Shown: positions 1,286 to 11,482 of the stretch, in pieces
Layout: every line of letters starts with the position of its first letter
How positions within the stretch are numbered: position 1 is the stretch's first letter
Assembly: GCA_016930515.1 (NCBI GenBank)
Contig: JAFGGO010000060.1
Location: 1 to 15,768 of the forward strand
Source: Promethearchaeota archaeon
Lineage (GTDB): Archaea; Asgardarchaeota; Lokiarchaeia; Sigyniarchaeales; SOKP01
Reading direction: 5' to 3'
Length of the DNA: 15,768 bases
Translations under genes and position numbers: made by a program
Notes under the pieces: generated by a model
Told to the model about the DNA's origin: nothing
Seen by the model: only the letters and a program-made list of their open reading frames with translations
The model's database searches: none

Positions 1286-2266
1286 ATGACGATAGGAGAT
1301 ATGGACAATATCATAAAACTTCAATTAAACAAGACTTTAAAAGAGACAAATTTATCAATTCCCGGCGCAAAAATATATCAAGGTAAAGTTCGGGACAATT
1401 ACATCCTTGACGACAAGCGAATCATCGTGGCGACCGATAGGATTTCTGCTTTTGATAGGGTGATAACGACCATACCTTTTAAAGGAGAGCTTCTCAACCA
1501 AATTAGCAGTTTTTGGTTTGAAAAGACCAAACATATCGTGAAAAACCACATCATAGATATCCCTGACCCGAATGTTTCCGTCACCCATCAATGCGAGACC
1601 GTACCTATTGAAATGATAGTAAGGGCATACATCACGGGTACGGCGTGGCGCAAGTATTTGAAGGGTGAAAAGGTATCTGGAATCGAACTTCCAAAGGGCT
1701 TAACAAAAAACCAAAAACTCGACGATATCGTCTTGACCCCTTCAACCAAGGCAGAATCGGGACACGACATCTACATTTCAAGAGAGGAAATTCTAAAGCA
1801 AAATATCATAGATAAGGACATTTACGAACAAATGGAACAAGCCGCCTTGAAACTATTTAATTTCGGACAAGATTATTGTAAAAAAAATGGATTGATTTTA
1901 GTTGACACGAAATACGAGATGGGAATTAAAAACGGCGAGCTTATGGTCATCGACGAGATCCACACCCAAGATTCTTCGAGATTCTGGATTGCCGATACTT
2001 ACGATGATTTATTCGAAAAAGGTGAGGACCCTGAAATATTGGATAAGGAATTCTTTCGAGGTTGGTTAATGACCACCTATCCAGATGTTTTTCCAGACAT
2101 CAAACCCGAACAAGACATCCCACCAATTCGAGAAGATGTGAAGATAGAACTCGCAAAAAGATATTTTAGGAGCTACAAAAAGATAACGGGAACCGAATAC
2201 AAGCCCGAAGTTGCGAATGTAATGGAAAGAATTACTGAAAATTTAACGAAAGCGGGATATATCTAA
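1286..2266 (+). CDS. purC: Phosphoribosylaminoimidazole-succinocarboxamide (SAICAR) synthase, long form
   Basis: Motifs YQGKVRDNY, VATDRISAFD, IPFKGELLN, TPSTKA..GHD, LVDTKYEMG, DEIHTQDSSRFW and LDKEFFRGW. Alternative start at ATG 1301. Confidence 0.96.
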   Translation: MTIGDMDNIIKLQLNKTLKETNLSIPGAKIYQGKVRDNYILDDKRIIVATDRISAFDRVITTIPFKGELLNQISSFWFEKTKHIVKNHIIDIPDPNVSVTHQCETVPIEMIVRAYITGTAWRKYLKGEKVSGIELPKGLTKNQKLDDIVLTPSTKAESGHDIYISREEILKQNIIDKDIYEQMEQAALKLFNFGQDYCKKNGLILVDTKYEMGIKNGELMVIDEIHTQDSSRFWIADTYDDLFEKGEDPEILDKEFFRGWLMTTYPDVFPDIKPEQDIPPIREDVKIELAKRYFRSYKKITGTEYKPEVANVMERITENLTKAGYI

Positions 2267-2276
2267 CCAAAGTGGT

Positions 2277-2290
2277 AAACTTTTTATAAA
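2277..2290 (+). promoter_or_regulatory. Archaeal BRE/TATA promoter for a probably leaderless transcript of 2314-2532
   Basis: TTTATAAA at 2283-2290 ends 24 nt before ATG 2314. No SD sequence is visible. Confidence 0.55.
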
Positions 2291-2313
2291 ATAACAAGCG
2301 TATCTTTCATATT

Positions 2314-2532
2314 ATGATCTATGCTATTTTTTTAACAATTAGTTTCATTCTATTTTTAGGAGCAATTTGCTGCTTTATTTACGAAATAAAATCCTCTAAA
2401 GTCGATAGAACGAAGCAGATCGGTAAGAATCTTCCAAAATTCAGTCAATATAGCTTCATCTTAGCCATTTTAGCCTTGGTGATGCTCGTGTTTGCTTCGA
2501 TCCCCTACATGCAATCGAGTTTAGAGGTATGA
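2314..2532 (+). CDS. Small hypothetical membrane protein (2 predicted TM helices)
   Basis: 72 aa with two hydrophobic segments flanking a basic loop, and a correctly spaced TATA box upstream. Confidence 0.7.
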   Translation: MIYAIFLTISFILFLGAICCFIYEIKSSKVDRTKQIGKNLPKFSQYSFILAILALVMLVFASIPYMQSSLEV

Positions 2533-2747
2533 TACAGAAAGTTACCTTACAAATTGTATATTCACATCTTTATTAATATAAAGAACAATAAATCCATTAT
2601 TTGAAAAATATTTTGGTCCATTTGAGATCTTATTTTATATATCCTTCAGATTTAGACTTGATTTTCTTATTTGTTCATACCCTGCTTTCACTATTACCAA
2701 ATTAATAGCAATCAATTAAAATCAATCCTGCATTTTGCAAATTATCA

Positions 2748-3017
2748 ATGGATATTCATGAATTTATTGTTGAAGTTGTATTAGAAAATAAACCAGCAGC
2801 CCGAGATCCAGTAGGAACCGTTATTCAAAAGGACCTTCTGGCGAAAAAAGGGTTTGACATGGTTTCAAATGTGCGGTCAGGCCAATATTTAAGGTTTTAC
2901 CTCAAAGCGTCTGACGATAGAGATGCTAATAAGATCATTGAGAAAATTTGTAACGATCTTCGGATATTCAATCCAGTAACTCAAAATTTAACAATTTTAA
3001 AGGTATCAAAAAATTAA
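2748..3017 (+). CDS. purS: Phosphoribosylformylglycinamidine synthase subunit PurS
   Basis: 89 aa with motifs KP..RDPVG, VRSGQY and NPV, directly upstream of purQ-purL. Confidence 0.92.
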   Translation: MDIHEFIVEVVLENKPAARDPVGTVIQKDLLAKKGFDMVSNVRSGQYLRFYLKASDDRDANKIIEKICNDLRIFNPVTQNLTILKVSKN

Positions 3018-3029
3018 TTGCCAAATAAA

Positions 3030-3740
3030 ATGACAATAAAAATCGCTTGTATTCAATTTCCGGGTTCCAATTGCGATCTTGATACCATGCATGTGCTAAA
3101 TAATGTTATAGGCATAGAAACGCACTTAATATGGCATAATCAATTCAAAGAATCTGAGTTCGATGGGTGCGTGTTGCCTGGAGGTTTCTCGTTTGGAGAC
3201 TACTTACGATCTGGCATTATTGCTGCCCATAGTCCTGCGATCGAGGAAGCTCGCGTCATGCTTAAGGATGGAAGGCCCATCATTGGTATATGCAACGGAT
3301 TTCAGATTCTTACAGAAGCCCAATTTCTCCCAGGAGCATTGCTTGGAAACGATTCGTTAAAATTCGTGTGTAAATGGGTCAATATTAAGGTTGAAAACAC
3401 GAATACTGCGTTTACTAACAAGATGATTACAAGTTCCGTGTTAAAAATCCCCATAGCACACGGAGAAGGGCGTTATTTCTCAGAAAATTTGAAAGAACTC
3501 GAAGATAACGACCAAGTCGTTTTTAGATACTCTAACGAAAGTGGAGAAATTACCAATGAATCCAATCCTAATGGGTCCTTGGATAATATCGCTGGAGTAT
3601 GTAACCTTGAACAAAACTGCGTTGGACTCATGCCTCACCCCGAACGTGCCTCAGAATCGATCTTAAGCCCTACTGGAACAACGCACGGCAGGTTATTTTT
3701 TGAATCCATGATTGAGTTCATTAAAAGGAGGGTATCCTAA
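3030..3740 (+). CDS. purQ: Phosphoribosylformylglycinamidine synthase glutaminase subunit PurQ
   Basis: Motifs FPGSNCD, LPGGFSFGDYLRSG, GICNGFQIL (catalytic Cys), PIAHGEG, NPNGS and MPHPER. ATG 3030 is preferred over TTG 3018. Confidence 0.97.
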   Translation: MTIKIACIQFPGSNCDLDTMHVLNNVIGIETHLIWHNQFKESEFDGCVLPGGFSFGDYLRSGIIAAHSPAIEEARVMLKDGRPIIGICNGFQILTEAQFLPGALLGNDSLKFVCKWVNIKVENTNTAFTNKMITSSVLKIPIAHGEGRYFSENLKELEDNDQVVFRYSNESGEITNESNPNGSLDNIAGVCNLEQNCVGLMPHPERASESILSPTGTTHGRLFFESMIEFIKRRVS

Positions 3741-5986
3741 TGCCTAGAGTTGAAAACAAAGGTGACGAGTTAACGGTCGATCTGACCGAGAAAGAAATTA
3801 AGCAAATACAAGATTTGTTAAAAAGACCCCCCTCCTTGACAGAATGGGGCATGTTCGATGTAATGCACTCGGAACACTGTTCTTATAAATCTTCGCGTCC
3901 AAAATTAAAGACCTTTGAAAATGCCGAAGAGAATTACGATTATGTCTTGGCAGGGCCAGGTGAAGACGCAGGAGTCATAGATATTGGGGATGGTTATTGC
4001 TTGGCGTTCAGGATCGAGTCGCACAACCATCCTTCAGCAATCGAGCCGTATCACGGTGCTGCTACGGGAATTGGCGGCATCATCAGGGATATCTTGTGCA
4101 TGGGGGTGCGACCAATTGCGTTGCTCGACCCGTTGCGTTTTGGACCATTAAAGAACAATCCACACTCACAATGGTTATTTAAATATGTAGTAAAAGGCAT
4201 TGCGGATTATGGCAATTGCACGGGCATTCCAACCATTGGAGGAGAAGTCGAATTTGACAAGAGTTTTGAAAATAATTGCTTGGTAAATGTTGCTTGCATT
4301 GGCTTAGGAACTATTGAGGATTTCAAACACGCTCCAAGTAGAGCGTATAATCCGGGTGATTATATTGTCCTCATGGGCGGATCTACGGGTAGGGACGGCA
4401 TTCACGGAGTAACATTCGCCTCTCGAACTTTAACGGAGATGTCAGAAGCGGATAGACCTGCCGTACAAATAGGAGATCCATTTACAAAAAAGATGATAAT
4501 CGAAGCGACGATTGAAGCCATAAAAACGGGTTATGTGAGAGGACTGAAAGATTTAGGTGGCGGTGGGCTATCGTGTGCATTAAGCGAGCTAACTGGCGAT
4601 GGAGGCACCGGGGCACTAGTTGATATGAGCAAGATATTCACAAGGGAGCCGGGAATGAACTCGTTTGAAATCATGCTTTCAGAATCGCAAGAACGAATGG
4701 CTTTTATCGTGAAACCCGAGGGACTAGAAACGGTTTTAGAAGTATTTCGGAAGTACGAGACACCACATGCCGTTATAGGAAGAACTGACGATTCTAAAGT
4801 CTTAAAGATACGAGACGGAGAAAAACTCGTGGTCAACCTTCCAGCAACGGCCTTATCGGACGCACCAACGATTATTAGGGAAGAGAAACGACCAGATTAC
4901 TTGGATAATCTTTTAAACCAAAATACTCCAGAACCTTCATTGGAGTTGGAAGATATAATTAACCAATTGTTGGCGTCCGAAAATATTTGTAGTAAAGAAT
5001 GGGTATATAGACAGTATGACCACGAAGTAGGCGTTCGATCCGTTGTAAAATGTGGAGAGGGGGATTCTGGATTGTTGCGCATTATAGGTACCAATAAATT
5101 CATTGCGGCAAGCGTTGGATGCAATTCTAAGCATTGTTACCTCGATCCTTACGAAGGTGCCAAGTCGGCTTTGGTCGAAGTGTGTGGAAATGTAATAGCA
5201 AGCGGCGCCAAGCCAATGGCAATGGTGAATTGCTGCAATTTTGGTAATCCCGAAAAACCTGTGTCTTATTGGTATTTTTCAAAAGCAGTTGATGGAATGA
5301 ACGACTTCTGTAGGACTTTACGAATCCCAATTGTTGGAGGAAATGTTTCCTTGTACAACGAAGATGAGGTATCCAACACGGCAATCAAGCCCGCACCAGT
5401 CATAATGATCGTGGGAATTGTCGAGGGTCAAGAAAACATTATTACACTACCTTTTAAACAAGATGGAAATTACATCCTTCTCGTGGGGGAAACAAAAAAA
5501 GAATTAGGCGGCTCTGAATATCATTCTGTTGTATATGGATTGGAAGGTGGCGTACCACCTAAAATTGAGGAGGAGGAGATTAAGGCGACCTGGGAGTTAC
5601 TTGAACAGTTGTACATTTCAAAAATAGTCAAGGCAAACCATGATGTGAATAGGGGGGGTTTTATGGTAACTATCTCTGAAATGTGCTTTAAAAACAATTT
5701 AGGTGCCGTACTTGACCTTTCAGAAATAAAACCAAAAGATATAAGAGACGACCAATTTTTATTCAGCGAATCTGGAGGAAGATTCATACTGGAAATTGAT
5801 CCAGACGATTATGTAGAGGTTGAAAGACTAGCAACGATTAAAAAAGTATATGTACAAAAAATAGGAGTTTTAAGTTCTAATCCTCAAATAATTGTTAAAG
5901 GTTTGAAAACTAAGGATATTACGATTAATCTGAATAAATTAAAAAAATCTTACCAATCTACTATACCAAAATTAATGGAGACATGA
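3740..5986 (+). CDS. purL: Phosphoribosylformylglycinamidine synthase subunit PurL (small form)
   Basis: Motifs SEHCSYKSS, ESHNHPS, GAATGIGGIIRD, SESQERM, QYDHEVG, NFGNPE and GGNVSLYN. A TAATG overlap with purQ indicates translational coupling. Confidence 0.98.
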   Translation: MPRVENKGDELTVDLTEKEIKQIQDLLKRPPSLTEWGMFDVMHSEHCSYKSSRPKLKTFENAEENYDYVLAGPGEDAGVIDIGDGYCLAFRIESHNHPSAIEPYHGAATGIGGIIRDILCMGVRPIALLDPLRFGPLKNNPHSQWLFKYVVKGIADYGNCTGIPTIGGEVEFDKSFENNCLVNVACIGLGTIEDFKHAPSRAYNPGDYIVLMGGSTGRDGIHGVTFASRTLTEMSEADRPAVQIGDPFTKKMIIEATIEAIKTGYVRGLKDLGGGGLSCALSELTGDGGTGALVDMSKIFTREPGMNSFEIMLSESQERMAFIVKPEGLETVLEVFRKYETPHAVIGRTDDSKVLKIRDGEKLVVNLPATALSDAPTIIREEKRPDYLDNLLNQNTPEPSLELEDIINQLLASENICSKEWVYRQYDHEVGVRSVVKCGEGDSGLLRIIGTNKFIAASVGCNSKHCYLDPYEGAKSALVEVCGNVIASGAKPMAMVNCCNFGNPEKPVSYWYFSKAVDGMNDFCRTLRIPIVGGNVSLYNEDEVSNTAIKPAPVIMIVGIVEGQENIITLPFKQDGNYILLVGETKKELGGSEYHSVVYGLEGGVPPKIEEEEIKATWELLEQLYISKIVKANHDVNRGGFMVTISEMCFKNNLGAVLDLSEIKPKDIRDDQFLFSESGGRFILEIDPDDYVEVERLATIKKVYVQKIGVLSSNPQIIVKGLKTKDITINLNKLKKSYQSTIPKLMET

Positions 5987-5994
5987 AAAAATAG

Positions 5995-7413
5995 ATGTGC
6001 GGAATATTCGGAATGTGTTGCAATAATTTTTTGCATTCAGTTGCGGGAACCATTTACACGGGACTTATGGCATTGCAGCATAGAGGACAAAGGTCCTGTG
6101 GGATATCAACAACGCAATGCGATGGTAAAATTGTTGCTTTTAAGGATAAAGGGTTGGTTTCAAGAGTTCTTAATCTTAAGGTGCTAAGCTCGTTTTCTGG
6201 TAATGTAGGCATCGGACATGTGGGCGATAATACCCTCAAAAGCGCCCATCAAAATTATCTCCAACCATTTCATCATGAGTCGCAAAATATAGAGTTTTCT
6301 ATTGTAATGGACGGAGCGGTAACGAATTATAAAGAACTCAGAGAGGATTTGGAGACTCTTGGAATAATTTTTTCTGGAAATACCCATGTTGAATTGATAT
6401 CTGCTTTAATAGAACTCCTATACAAGATTTACAATAAAGACATTCTTCTAACCCTAATTAAAACGGTAGAGGCGCTTAAAGGAGCGTTTTCTGTCCTACT
6501 CATGACTTCTGGAGGAGAATTATTTGCATTTAGAGATCCCGTGGGATATACCCCATTATGCCACGGCGTTCTGGAAACACCTGGAAAATCAATTCGATTG
6601 GTCGCATCCGAGTCCAGCGCCTTGGATGTGTTAGGTTGCCAAGATATTTTCGATGTTAAACCAGGCGAGGTAGTCGAAATTCACCCAAATAAAAAGGTGA
6701 GAAAGCACCGAGCAGTTCCTCAAAAGAATGGCGGAATCTGCCATTTTGAGTTCGTAAACAACGCACGTCCCGACTCGGTCATTGAAGGGTTGCCAGTAGC
6801 AAACATTCGCTATAAATTAGGTAGAAACTTGGCAAAACTCGATATTATAAATTTTGATAATGCAATAGTGGTACCAATTCCCGATTCGGGAAGAAGCGCG
6901 GCCATGGGATATTCTTGGGAGTCTGGAATTCTGTATCAAGAAGGGTTGATGAAAAACAGGTACAGATGGAAAATTAACTGCGAGATTAAAGAAAAGCTAA
7001 ACCCAATCAAGGCAGTTATAGAAGGAAAGGACATCGTACTCATTGACGACTCCATTCTTTCTGGAAACACGCTAAAAGAAATAATATTGATGTTAAGAAC
7101 TGCGGGGGCCAACTCGGTTCACGTTCGTATAAGTTGTCCTCCAATCATTAACAAATGCGAAACCAATGGTAGTTTAAAAAGTAGAGACTTATTAATTGCT
7201 AGCAAAACCAAGATAGACCATTACGATAATTTCAACGAGGAAATGAGAACATACATCGGAGCCGACACGCTTGTGTACCAGTCAATCGAATGCTTTATCG
7301 ATGCTGTGGGTTTAGACGAGAATAACATGTGCTTGAGTTGCATAGCAGAATATTGCTTGGTCAAGGAAGAGGAAAGGTTAAACCACCTTGAAATCGACTT
7401 AATCGTCAAATAA
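5995..7413 (+). CDS. purF: Amidophosphoribosyltransferase (PurF) homologue, Fe-S type, with degenerate catalytic motifs
   Basis: N-terminal MCGIFG, plus LQHRGQ, ASES, ARPDS, PIPDSG, LIDDSILSGNT and C-terminal CLSC. Starts 8 nt after purL. Several conserved catalytic positions are altered (see findings). Confidence 0.85.
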   Translation: MCGIFGMCCNNFLHSVAGTIYTGLMALQHRGQRSCGISTTQCDGKIVAFKDKGLVSRVLNLKVLSSFSGNVGIGHVGDNTLKSAHQNYLQPFHHESQNIEFSIVMDGAVTNYKELREDLETLGIIFSGNTHVELISALIELLYKIYNKDILLTLIKTVEALKGAFSVLLMTSGGELFAFRDPVGYTPLCHGVLETPGKSIRLVASESSALDVLGCQDIFDVKPGEVVEIHPNKKVRKHRAVPQKNGGICHFEFVNNARPDSVIEGLPVANIRYKLGRNLAKLDIINFDNAIVVPIPDSGRSAAMGYSWESGILYQEGLMKNRYRWKINCEIKEKLNPIKAVIEGKDIVLIDDSILSGNTLKEIILMLRTAGANSVHVRISCPPIINKCETNGSLKSRDLLIASKTKIDHYDNFNEEMRTYIGADTLVYQSIECFIDAVGLDENNMCLSCIAEYCLVKEEERLNHLEIDLIVK

Positions 7414-7637: not shown

Positions 7638-7841
7638 ATGAGAGCACGAGCTTGTACGAAATGCAAAACATACGCTGTAATTCATGCTAATAATCCCGTG
7701 AGCCTGAACAGGATAAAAGCCTTCGAAAAAGTTCACTCAGGGCATTCGCTTGTTACCGTTGATTACTTCGAAATTAAAGACGAATACAAGCGATTTAACG
7801 AAAACGAGGCTCCAAGCGTGGAAAAACCAGTCGTATCCTAA
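7638..7841 (+). CDS. Small hypothetical protein, putative zinc-binding (CxxC...HxxH)
   Basis: 67 aa with CTKC and HSGH. TATA-like TTTTTATA near 7560 upstream and a pyrimidine/U-rich tract after the stop. Confidence 0.8.
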   Translation: MRARACTKCKTYAVIHANNPVSLNRIKAFEKVHSGHSLVTVDYFEIKDEYKRFNENEAPSVEKPVVS

Positions 7842-8023
7842 GTTTATCTCTTCTTTTTTATGACCTTTATCTTTTTGTTTTTAGATAATCATCTTCTTAA
7901 CATTCGATGAAATTCAAACGAAAATAGACTTTAGTTCTTCTATTGACATGTTATATATTCAAGGCAAGGACGAGTCATTTACAATTAGCAATAATCAAGG
8001 ATCCTAAAGAGCACTAGCGACTT

Positions 8024-8169
8024 TTAAGGGAGGTCCCTGCCGTCGCGACCAGGGTGCGGTCGAAATAATATAAAAAAAAGTAAGGGTGAAAATCCACGAG
8101 TTCACTCGCATTAACCAAAAGACAAAAATCCAGGGTTGACCACAGGGACCATTGTTATGATTTTTTTTT
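8024..8169. ncRNA. Candidate structured ncRNA, element 1 (multi-branched, about 120-nt core)
   Basis: GGTCCCTG (8032-8039) pairs with CAGGGACC (8143-8150), and GTC pairs with GAC. Internal hairpins: CGACC/GGTCG (8046-8062), GGGTGAA/TTCACTC (8084-8107), AACC/GGTT (8113-8137). T9 at 8161-8169. GC-rich island in AT-rich intergenic DNA with no credible ORF. Confidence 0.55.
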
Positions 8170-8463
8170 GGTTCTATTTACCTGTTAATATAAAATCTAA
8201 CTTCTAATCTTCTATAAATAAATAATTTTATAAGATACCATAAAAATGAATGTGGAATGAAAGTGAAGGAAAATTGGATTTAAAAAAAAATTATAAAAAT
8301 TAAGGATTAATAAGAGATATTTTATTTTTTAAAATCTTGTTAATTTGTATTTATCTTAAAAAATTCACAAATTATGGTTATCGTAAAAATTAATAATCAC
8401 ATATTTCATTGGTTCTAAATAGATCAAAAATAAAGTTTTAACCGTTTCTAATCCATAATCAAT

Positions 8464-8955
8464 TTAATGATTGATTAAAAAGGGTCGTTTTTTTTTCTTT
8501 AGTATGTATTGCTGATGGTATTCTTCGGCCTCCCAGAATTCGGATGCTTTGGTGATTTCAGTAACGATTGGTCTCCTGAATTTTCCCGATTGTTCCATCT
8601 TTTCCCTTGATTTTACGGCCATATTTTTTTGTTCGTCGTTCATGTAGAAAATTGCCGTTCTGTATTGACTTCCCACATCCGGTCCCTGCCGATTTGGCGT
8701 TGTTGGGTCGTGAATGTTCCAGAATAAATCCAACAGTTCGTCGTACGATACGATCGTTGGATCGAAAGTTATTTCCACAGCTTCTGCGTGTCCCGTCTTG
8801 TCGCTACAAACATCTTCGTAAGTTGGATTTGGAAAATCTCCTCCCGTATAACCTACCCGTGTAGATATTACGCCTTTTTGGCTTCGATACGCTTCTTCTT
8901 TAGACCAAAAACACCCCGCAGCAATGATCGCTTTTTCATTTTTTTTCGGTTCCAT
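8464..8955 (-). CDS. msrA: Peptide-methionine (S)-S-oxide reductase MsrA
   Basis: Motifs AAGCFW, GYTGG, PTYEDVC..TGHAEAV, HDPT..NRQGPDVGSQYRTAIF and AEEYHQQY. Confidence 0.97.
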   Translation of the reverse strand: MEPKKNEKAIIAAGCFWSKEEAYRSQKGVISTRVGYTGGDFPNPTYEDVCSDKTGHAEAVEITFDPTIVSYDELLDLFWNIHDPTTPNRQGPDVGSQYRTAIFYMNDEQKNMAVKSREKMEQSGKFRRPIVTEITKASEFWEAEEYHQQYILKKKKRPFLINH

Positions 8956-11367: not shown

Positions 11368-11392
11368 CTACAACCCCAATAATTAAATCAAA

Positions 11393-11482
11393 TTAAGGGA
11401 GGAGCGCTTTAGAATTCGTCGCAATTTCTCGGGAGGAGGACGCGAATAAATTCTAAAGCACACCACTTAATGTATTTTTTTT
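11393..11482. ncRNA. Candidate structured RNA or terminator hairpin, element 2, carrying two GGGAGGAG / CTCCTCCC motifs
   Basis: Perfect 11-bp stem GCTTTAGAATT (11406-11416) / AATTCTAAAGC (11449-11459), extendable to 11401-11464, with an inner CGTC/GACG pairing. GGGAGGAG at 11397-11404 and 11431-11438. T8 at 11475-11482. Confidence 0.55.

Follow-up and report, generated by a model that had tools for sequence, protein, structure and literature searches.

Our analysis reveals that a stretch of about 120 bases in an Asgard archaeal contig is a real gene for a folded RNA, and that this element is a member of an uncatalogued, multi-copy RNA family whose representatives are ~105–150 nt in length. 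The family is restricted to one family of Loki-type Asgard archaea (Promethearchaeota). We tentatively propose that its members are free-standing genes for structured small RNAs of ~120 nt that act in trans, that are probably made from the minus strand and that are bound by SmAP/Lsm proteins, and we place the probability of this reading at about 0.4. To our knowledge, almost nothing has been established about the non-coding RNAs of Asgard archaea, which are the closest known relatives of eukaryotes. Throughout, 'the window' denotes the entire 15,768-nt stretch of DNA that was analysed, and coordinates and strands are given relative to it.

The element in the window

The whole element spans positions 8029–8153, with the minus strand as its probable strand, and forms a three-way junction of helices P1, P2 and P3. 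The closing stem P1 can be read directly from the sequence, with GGTCCCTG at 8032–8039 pairing with CAGGGACC at 8143–8150 (both given in plus sense), and covariation across ~150 relatives agrees with the stem that the sequence-only reading had drawn at this place. Direct reading and covariation likewise define hairpin P2 (8046–8062; CGACC/GGTCG with a 7-nt loop) and hairpin P3 (8097–8108; CGAG-TTCA-CTCG, or CGAG-UGAA-CUCG on the minus strand). Alignments place a long junction strand between them at 8063–8096, which is rich in purines when read in plus sense and in pyrimidines when read in minus sense, and which carries the family motif RGGGYGAAAUC, here GGGTGAAAATCC, at 8084–8095. An invariant 19-nt core occupies 8115–8133. 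Its plus-strand sequence is CCAAAAGACAAAAATCCAG, and its minus-strand sequence, CUGGAUUUUUGUCUUUUGG, includes the Sm-site-like GAUUUUUGU.

Beyond the closing stem, a plus-strand run of nine T residues (A9 in minus sense) is evident at 8161–8169, 11 nt from P1. A TATA-like minus-strand sequence, TTTATATT (AATATAAA in plus sense), is located at 8187–8194, which is 37–44 nt upstream of P1 in minus-strand orientation, and a plus-strand TATA, TTATATAT, is located at 7951–7958. The repeats and hairpins described previously, along with the T9 tract and both TATA-like boxes, were all confirmed at the positions given for them. The element thus contains CCAGGGT at 8049–8055 and again at 8130–8136, AAAATCCA at 8089–8096 and 8125–8132, and GGGT-GAAA-ATCC inside 8084–8095.

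Some of these features belong to the family and others to this copy. Among the helices of the element, the closing stem, GACC/GGTC and CGAG/CTCG are supported by covariation, whereas the GGGT-GAAA-ATCC hairpin is peculiar to the window copy. The 7-bp alternative fold suggested for 8084–8108 is also confined to this copy, as alignments reveal that it is not kept among relatives. The internal repeats fare similarly, in that CCAGGGT is copy-specific, whereas the two AAAATCC modules partly correspond to the family-wide sequences RGGGYGAAAUC and GACAAAAAUCC.

Both strands of a 123-nt stretch carrying the element fold better than dinucleotide-shuffled controls. The plus strand has a predicted folding energy of −37.0 kcal/mol (z = −3.70) and the minus strand −42.4 kcal/mol (z = −4.17), and none of 200 shuffles matched the natural sequence on either strand. 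These values, together with the conservation described below, bear out the proposal that the region encodes a genuine structured RNA with several branches. Over the full length of a covariance model for the family, called R1, the window copy scores 72.3 bits, with an E-value of ~1e-14 to 1e-17, and its retention of P1, P2, P3 and the exact core at 8115–8133 makes it a member of the family. A C-rich tract of the family consensus, CCUCCUCCCCC, is degenerate in this copy and reads CACCCUUAC on the minus strand.

Conserved architecture and covariation

The same architecture is present in all 138 distinct copies that were read, wherein P1 encloses P2, a long junction, P3 and the invariant core. In plus sense the elements are ordered as P1, P2, long junction, P3, core and the 3' half of P1. 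Among these 138 copies, P1 is often formed by GACUCCUGCC and GGCAGGAGUC, and the long junction has the plus-sense sequence AAAAUAAAAUAGGGGGAGGAGGGCGAAAUCA. The R1 model was built from 58 aligned seed copies with the three helices supplied, and searches of the collected loci with it yielded 103 and 62 copies.

Comparative sequence analysis strongly supports the three helices. In the refitted alignment of ~150 copies, compensatory double changes are found at every one of the 22 modelled base pairs. Paired cells amount to 91.3% in this alignment, compared with 29–40% when the partners are slid by one to three columns and 71.8% when columns are shuffled, and none of 500 shuffles reached the observed value; because the alignment was fitted with the model, these statistics somewhat favour the structure, although the margin is very large. 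Compensatory changes occur at all 11 modelled pairs of P1, in which 82–94% of cells are paired, and at all five family pairs of P2 and all six of P3, each with 92% of cells paired. A mutual-information scan for further covarying pairs or pseudoknots found none beyond the helices of the model. RNAalifold applied to a plain MAFFT alignment recovered P1 only, and the rest of the structure needed the supplied helices and the covariance-model refit.

The helices vary in sequence yet remain paired, and both junction strands are strongly conserved. The core CCAAAAGACAAAAATCCAG is identical in 58 of 58 seed copies and in every copy collected, although most copies were retrieved through the core itself. 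Core invariance of this extent implies a conserved partner, be it a protein, the ribosome, a ligand or a catalytic site, even if the link to Sm proteins considered below should prove wrong.

Two small open reading frames, one on each strand, were considered and rejected. For the plus-strand frame (GUG...NQKTKIQG), the spacing to the core shifts by 1–2 nt and no frame is kept, and the distance from the AUG-like start to the core of the minus-strand frame (AUG ACU CCU GCC...) shifts to the same extent. Because the start-to-core distance varies by 1–2 nt and no reading frame is preserved, we conclude that the element is not coding. Furthermore, the core is without synonymous variation in the 58-copy alignment.

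Some copies, for example L121 5895–6047, L131 6082–6233 and L086 6055–6213, carry a hairpin-forming insertion of ~30 nt inside the junction, at GGGGGA|GGAGGGCG. When insertion-bearing copies were scanned under strict criteria for bulge-helix-bulge motifs, no canonical one was detected at these sites in either sense.

An uncatalogued family confined to one archaeal lineage

The element had not been matched to any RNA family from its sequence, and searches of Rfam 15 (4227 models) lead to the same outcome. No match at gathering score was obtained in the window or at 10 other loci, and nothing meaningful was found at E ≤ 10 for either the window copy or a consensus-like copy. The hits that did appear, namely MIR2655 (E = 1.9), TCV_H4 (E = 4.5), NEAT1_2 (E = 0.54) and Fluoride (E = 1.5), are chance-level matches that all fall far below threshold. 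The Y_RNA, Vault, snRNA and ribozyme models of Rfam gave no match, ARAGORN detected no tRNA or tmRNA gene in the window, and a literature search found no description of the family. Thus, the RNA family is uncatalogued and new, even if the type of mechanism it uses may yet be a known one.

Homologues are found throughout related genomes of the same GTDB family. In a BLAST search with the element, ~25 nt (window positions ~8111–8136) recur several times per genome in 36 of 36 sampled genomes of this family, and the exact 19-mer CCAAAAGACAAAAATCCAG is present in at least 119 contigs, nearly all of which are from Promethearchaeota (Asgard) metagenome-assembled genomes (MAGs). With strict filters, the R1 model is positive in 25 of 25 sampled genomes of the window's GTDB family and in none of 125 genomes from 26 other Asgard families. 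Two complete sister-family genomes likewise yielded no R1 match, whereas three weak, diverged relatives scoring 29–35 bits are present in a third, that of Candidatus Lokiarchaeum ossiferum Loki-B35 (CP104013.1), at 3151873–3151991, 6008035–6008183 and 2498074–2498200. These relatives (L155, L158 and L161) keep GGGCGAAAUCA and CCAAAAAGACAAAAU, and their core is slightly altered to AUCCAAAAAGACAAAAU. Given that this species is cultured, its diverged relatives make bench work on the family possible. The 19-mer also has four matches in IMG/VR. One, on a contig of 225 kb, is a genuine if diverged copy, and the remaining three fall by chance in coding-like sequence.

Related genomes have from one to 11 copies. 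Two are detectable in the genome studied here, the window copy and a second on another contig (C20:3234–3353; 120 bits), and a third may have been lost at the contig end beside a membrane-protein gene described below.

Genomic context

The window copy resides in a 622-nt gap between two convergent genes, a 67-aa ORF (7638–7841, plus strand) and msrA (8464–8955, minus strand), downstream of a purC-purL-purF operon. The operon (1286–7413, plus strand) comprises co-directional genes for SAICAR synthetase, two small ORFs, a 240-aa ORF, a PurL-like FGAM synthase and an amidophosphoribosyltransferase-like protein. The 67-aa ORF, which has CxxC and HxxH-like motifs (MRARACTKCKTYAVIH…HSGH…) and no Pfam match, is positioned 190 nt from the RNA and is convergent with it. 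The copy on C20 is similarly positioned in a convergent gap, between a gene for an Ig-domain protein and an 83-aa/LRR gene pair. Riboswitches and leaders are expected in the 5' UTRs of co-directional, functionally coherent genes, and the convergent placement of both copies in this genome therefore makes such a role unlikely.

Across the family, the copies with callable neighbours divide into 53 in divergent gaps, 42 in tandem gaps and 17 in convergent ones. In 38–39 genomes one locus is conserved, where the RNA is situated midway in a divergent gap of ~650 nt between tes and a gene for a 130-aa membrane protein, and each half of this gap retains conserved promoter-like blocks of its own. The tes product is identified as tetraether lipid synthase Tes by NCBIfam NF045702 (456.7 bits), and it matches the Pfam domains Radical_SAM and Zn_ribbon_HMPTM. 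The membrane protein carries the motifs SWxNM, IIFTTIIP and NRYWGYG and matches nothing in Pfam or NCBIfam. Its gene is single-copy in 24 of 25 genomes of the family and absent from all 125 other Asgard genomes, which is the same lineage range as that of the RNA, and it almost always adjoins one copy of the RNA and tes. In the genome studied here it is located at a contig end (C70:40484–40870, minus strand); an example from elsewhere is L130:773–1165.

Eight loci (L029, L033, L056, L107, L150 and related) have the RNA between genes for a Ski2/Hel308-like helicase and an HHH-NYN (Zc3h12a-like) ribonuclease. Other flanking genes share no function, and only the syntenic locus is coherent. This overall pattern of contexts fits an independent gene rather than a leader, whereas the adjacency of one copy, in nearly every genome, to the membrane-protein gene and tes leaves room for a local regulatory role.

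Evidence for the transcribed strand

We consider the minus strand to be, quite probably, the transcribed one. RNA helices tolerate G-U pairs and do not tolerate A-C, and so the mismatches that interrupt helices report on the strand. When 151 distinct copies were read in plus sense, A-C or C-A mismatches numbered 88 and G-U or U-G mismatches 15, with the other eight types totalling 64; only mismatches flanked by Watson-Crick pairs were counted, and the counts refer to sequences rather than to independent events. The A-C excess is spread across P1, P2 and P3. An A-C mismatch in plus sense is a G-U wobble on the minus strand, and this strand is therefore favoured. Furthermore, the predicted fold is more stable for the minus strand than for the plus strand in 115 of 143 copies, with mean energies of −38.9 kcal/mol for the minus strand and −34.8 kcal/mol for the plus strand.

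Runs of T residues point the other way. On the side that is downstream for the plus strand, runs of at least five T residues follow 49% of copies, compared with 19% for intergenic background, whereas the side that is downstream for the minus strand has such runs in 23% of copies, which is background level, and offers just a fixed CUUU immediately after P1. The window copy conforms to this pattern, as T9 is on the plus side and no good U-run is present on the minus side. This asymmetry is a point against the minus strand. T9 itself could either terminate an RNA made from the plus strand or, read as an A-tract, directly precede one made from the minus strand. Its proposed role as a terminator is consistent with the family-wide excess of T-runs on the same side, and this keeps the plus strand in play.

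Promoter signals are less informative. A scan of TATA-box positions across the family gave no sharp peak on either side, and a promoter consensus sought from 12 ARAGORN tRNA genes yielded none that was usable. A AAAATAGG-type box is found upstream of P1 in minus orientation in 32 of 147 copies, ending ~10–24 nt before the model boundary, which would be roughly at TATA distance if transcription starts near P1. In the window, the TATA-like TTTATATT is a possible promoter of the minus-strand RNA, as judged from its sequence and position. The previously suggested transcript of 185 nt, which would run on the plus strand from the TATA at 7951 to T9, is disfavoured by the balance of 88 A-C to 15 G-U mismatches, and its plus-strand TATA does not gain support as a start site from the family, wherein no TATA signal is evident at a fixed distance on either side. 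On balance, the minus-strand RNA probably starts near P1, preceded by an A-rich tract, and stops just past P1 in a short run of U residues.

A possible trans-acting small RNA bound by Sm-like proteins

Read on the minus strand, the RNA proceeds from the 5' half of P1 through CCCUGGAUUUUUGUCUUUUGGU, P3, CUGAUUUCGCCCUCCUCCCCCUAUUUUAUUUU and P2 to P1' and a 3' CCCUUU. The core sequence GAUUUUUGU, invariant on this strand, is positioned between P1 and P3. The sequence-only reading had remarked in passing on an Sm-site-like GAUUUUUG on the minus strand, and this turns out to fall within the best-conserved part of the family. The Sm-site consensus is RAU4-6GR, from which GAUUUUUGU departs by one base in that the heptad is followed by U instead of a purine. 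The second junction, with the minus-strand consensus GAUUUCGCCCUCCUCCCCCUAUUUU, is CCUCC-rich and resembles an anti-Shine-Dalgarno sequence, and it is less conserved than the core.

We favour a trans-acting RNA that functions in a SmAP/Lsm ribonucleoprotein (RNP) because an invariant unpaired segment is carried on variable helices, because genomes have several diverged paralogues, because the genes are free-standing and because three LSM-domain genes are present in this genome, at C111:62308–62502, C186:41796–42011 and C166:8178–8366. In such an RNP, the helices would act as a framework on which the invariant U-rich stretch is displayed for a conserved protein, for which an archaeal Sm ring (SmAP/Lsm) seems the most plausible candidate. 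The C-rich tract, which is retained in most copies, could then be available for pairing with purine-rich sites in mRNAs.

Several observations temper this proposal. Related genomes that lack the RNA also have three LSM genes, and so there is no correlation between LSM gene number and the RNA. A weak 4-bp hairpin is predicted within the minus-strand core, formed by GGAU and GUCU with two G-U pairs and a UUUU loop, and this structure, if it forms as modelled, would occlude a single-stranded Sm site. In addition, GGAGG-type Shine-Dalgarno sites precede just 2.8% of the long ORFs in this genome, which would leave few targets for an anti-Shine-Dalgarno role. This MAG contains no 16S rRNA and that of a relative has a truncated one, and as a result the lineage's own anti-Shine-Dalgarno sequence is not readable from them.

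A more ambitious version of the proposal is that the family consists of snRNA-like RNP RNAs in which the invariant GAUUUUUGUCU box would be a genuine Sm site, onto which a SmAP ring is loaded. We regard this as unlikely. If the site is real, these RNAs would be a prokaryotic counterpart of the Sm-class RNPs, with sites like those of U2 and U7, among the closest known relatives of eukaryotes. A genuine resemblance would also open the pre-eukaryotic past of Sm-class RNPs to direct experiment.

Alternative explanations

Aptamers typically have covarying helices arranged about invariant junctions that are rich in purines, and it seems appropriate to ask whether the plus strand might carry a cis-regulator, either a riboswitch-like aptamer or an attenuator, whose junctions would form a pocket for a ligand or protein and whose T-tract would be a terminator. 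At the ancestral locus, such an RNA would control the membrane-protein gene. Such an arrangement would explain why T-runs of at least five residues follow the element at 49% against a background of 19%, and why the gene for the 130-aa membrane protein is downstream on the same strand in 35 of 35 cases, at 136–383 nt from the core, with the pair present in nearly every genome of the family; the P2 loops are also A-rich on the plus strand. We nevertheless consider it unlikely, as the 88 A-C mismatches against 15 G-U oppose a plus-strand RNA, both copies in this genome and 17 copies family-wide have no co-directional gene downstream, and the genes downstream of other copies share no function. Moreover, 135–380 nt separate the element from the next gene, and this interval contains a conserved promoter-like block distinct from the element. 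A 3' flanking sequence, CCCUAUUUUAUUU, can pair with the junction sequence AAAUAAAAUAGGG in a subset of copies; this pairing was rejected as a feature of the family, since flanks taken from other copies pair as well as the native one (p = 0.086) and the motif is present in just 54 of 147 copies. The positional peak of CCCUAUUUUAUUU could equally reflect a TATA-like box for the minus strand. If instead the minus strand is transcribed, the RNA could be a 5' leader, or an RNA processed from upstream of a co-directional gene, that acts locally. The element points towards tes in 38 loci, mostly at a distance of 166–374 nt, and divergent gaps, which always supply a co-directional downstream gene, are the commonest type (53 copies). 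This explanation strikes us as somewhat less probable still, given the conserved promoter-like block between the RNA and tes, the unrelated genes or lack of genes downstream of other copies, and the fact that in the window a minus-strand RNA would run into a convergent ORF.

A new self-cleaving or otherwise catalytic RNA, with the invariant junction strands as its active site, would be in keeping with 19 invariant nucleotides beside freely covarying helices, and the three-way junction and the many copies per genome, which reach 11 in one case, likewise recall small ribozyme classes. We judge this improbable, as the Rfam ribozyme models give no match, no hammerhead-type core motifs are seen, and the copies are not associated with repeats, retroelements or operon junctions. 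The likeness to Y or vault RNAs raised by the sequence-only reading is based on a comparable length, on the pairing of the 5' end with the 3' end and on a U-run close by, and a component of a Ro or vault particle with these features is now largely refuted and very improbable. The TROVE/Ro60 domain (PF05731) was not found in this 94%-complete genome, whereas controls in Deinococcus and Bacteroides were positive; the vault repeat (PF01505) was not found either, which is weak evidence since the control set was equally silent; and neither the Y_RNA nor the Vault model of Rfam matches. We attach equally little weight to an element that operates only as DNA, such as an IS end or MITE, a site bound by a protein or a terminator working in both directions. 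The GC-rich stem is indeed flanked by an A-tract and a T-tract, and the family is multi-copy. However, the copies differ by compensatory changes rather than being nearly identical, as mobile elements would be, and conserved junctions and two inner hairpins would be superfluous for a terminator. Synteny is stable across genera, and no transposase, TnpB or recombinase is encoded next to the copies, which also speaks against the IS end that had been named as an alternative and against omega and bridge RNAs.

Comparison with known RNA systems

The trans-acting, Sm-associated RNA that we favour can be compared with several known systems. Eukaryotic Sm sites include GAUUUUUGG in U2 and AAUUUGUCUAG in U7, both of which GAUUUUUGU closely resembles. 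Like the Sm-class snRNAs, the new RNAs are small, have as their best-conserved part a U-rich RAU5G (GAUUUUUGUCU, minus strand) between helices, and are encoded by several gene copies per genome in the presence of LSM-domain genes. They differ in that a U follows the G, in that the stretch is perhaps partly paired according to structure prediction, and in that the site is a putative one. Moreover, the functional sequences of snRNAs are not seen here and no Rfam snRNA model matches, the family is restricted to one archaeal family rather than being universal, and the number of LSM genes does not track with the RNA.

Bacteria also make sets of sibling sRNAs, such as Qrr1–5, and LhrC, RsaE/RoxS and the streptococcal csRNAs have C-rich anti-Shine-Dalgarno seeds. 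As with these sRNAs and with SmAP/Lsm-associated archaeal sRNAs, the family consists of diverged paralogues in which an invariant unpaired segment is carried on variable helices. A CCUCC-rich tract complementary to ribosome-binding sites and free intergenic genes are further points in common. In contrast, the invariant part here is U-rich instead of C-rich, Shine-Dalgarno use is low, and the closed three-way junction is more elaborate than the structures of typical sRNAs.

The Hgc RNAs, said to have been described by Klein, Misulovin and Eddy in 2002, are reportedly GC-rich non-coding RNA islands of AT-rich archaea. The element studied here is similarly a GC-enriched structured island in very AT-rich archaeal intergenic DNA, but Rfam scans reveal no homology, and this multi-copy family is found specifically in Lokiarchaeia-type genomes. 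Riboswitch aptamers built on three-way junctions, such as those for purines and thiamin pyrophosphate (TPP), also have covarying helices around highly conserved junction nucleotides. Unlike these, the new RNA is not tied to 5' UTRs, its regulon is incoherent, and the strand evidence points away from the strand that would place it upstream of the membrane-protein gene. Finally, the family resembles Y and vault RNAs in its length of ~100 nt, its paired ends and its U-run, whereas the partner proteins of those RNAs were not found in the genome (with the vault control silent), no model matches, and the family presumably lacks the bulged helix that is the Ro-binding signature of Y RNAs.

Other sequence elements in the window

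Other potentially structured or conserved sequences were encountered in the window. A 10-mer upstream of the element, TTAAGGGAGG, is also upstream of a second strong hairpin at 11390–11475, between the convergent hsp20 and DUF362 genes, and this hairpin is likewise followed by a T8 tail. Its stem is 11 bp long and is capped by GGGAGGAGG (minus-strand sequence CCUCCUCCC), with folding z-scores of −5.7 for the plus strand and −7.6 for the minus strand, and it is not a member of the family by R1.

At 8340–8362, the sequence AATTTGTATTTATCTTAAAA resembles AAATTTAAATTTTTATCTTAAG, which is conserved between the RNA and the membrane-protein gene in other genomes. As no membrane-protein gene follows in the window, this sequence may be a remnant or a chance match. 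Closer to the RNA, at a distance of ~85 nt, a 63-nt block (8237–8296; …CCATAAAAATGAATGTGGAATGAAAGTGAAGG…) that contains no ORF shares 82.5% identity with a block adjoining the orthologous RNA in a genome of the same genus (L003 1308–1370), and a similar motif is present on another contig (C46) of this genome.
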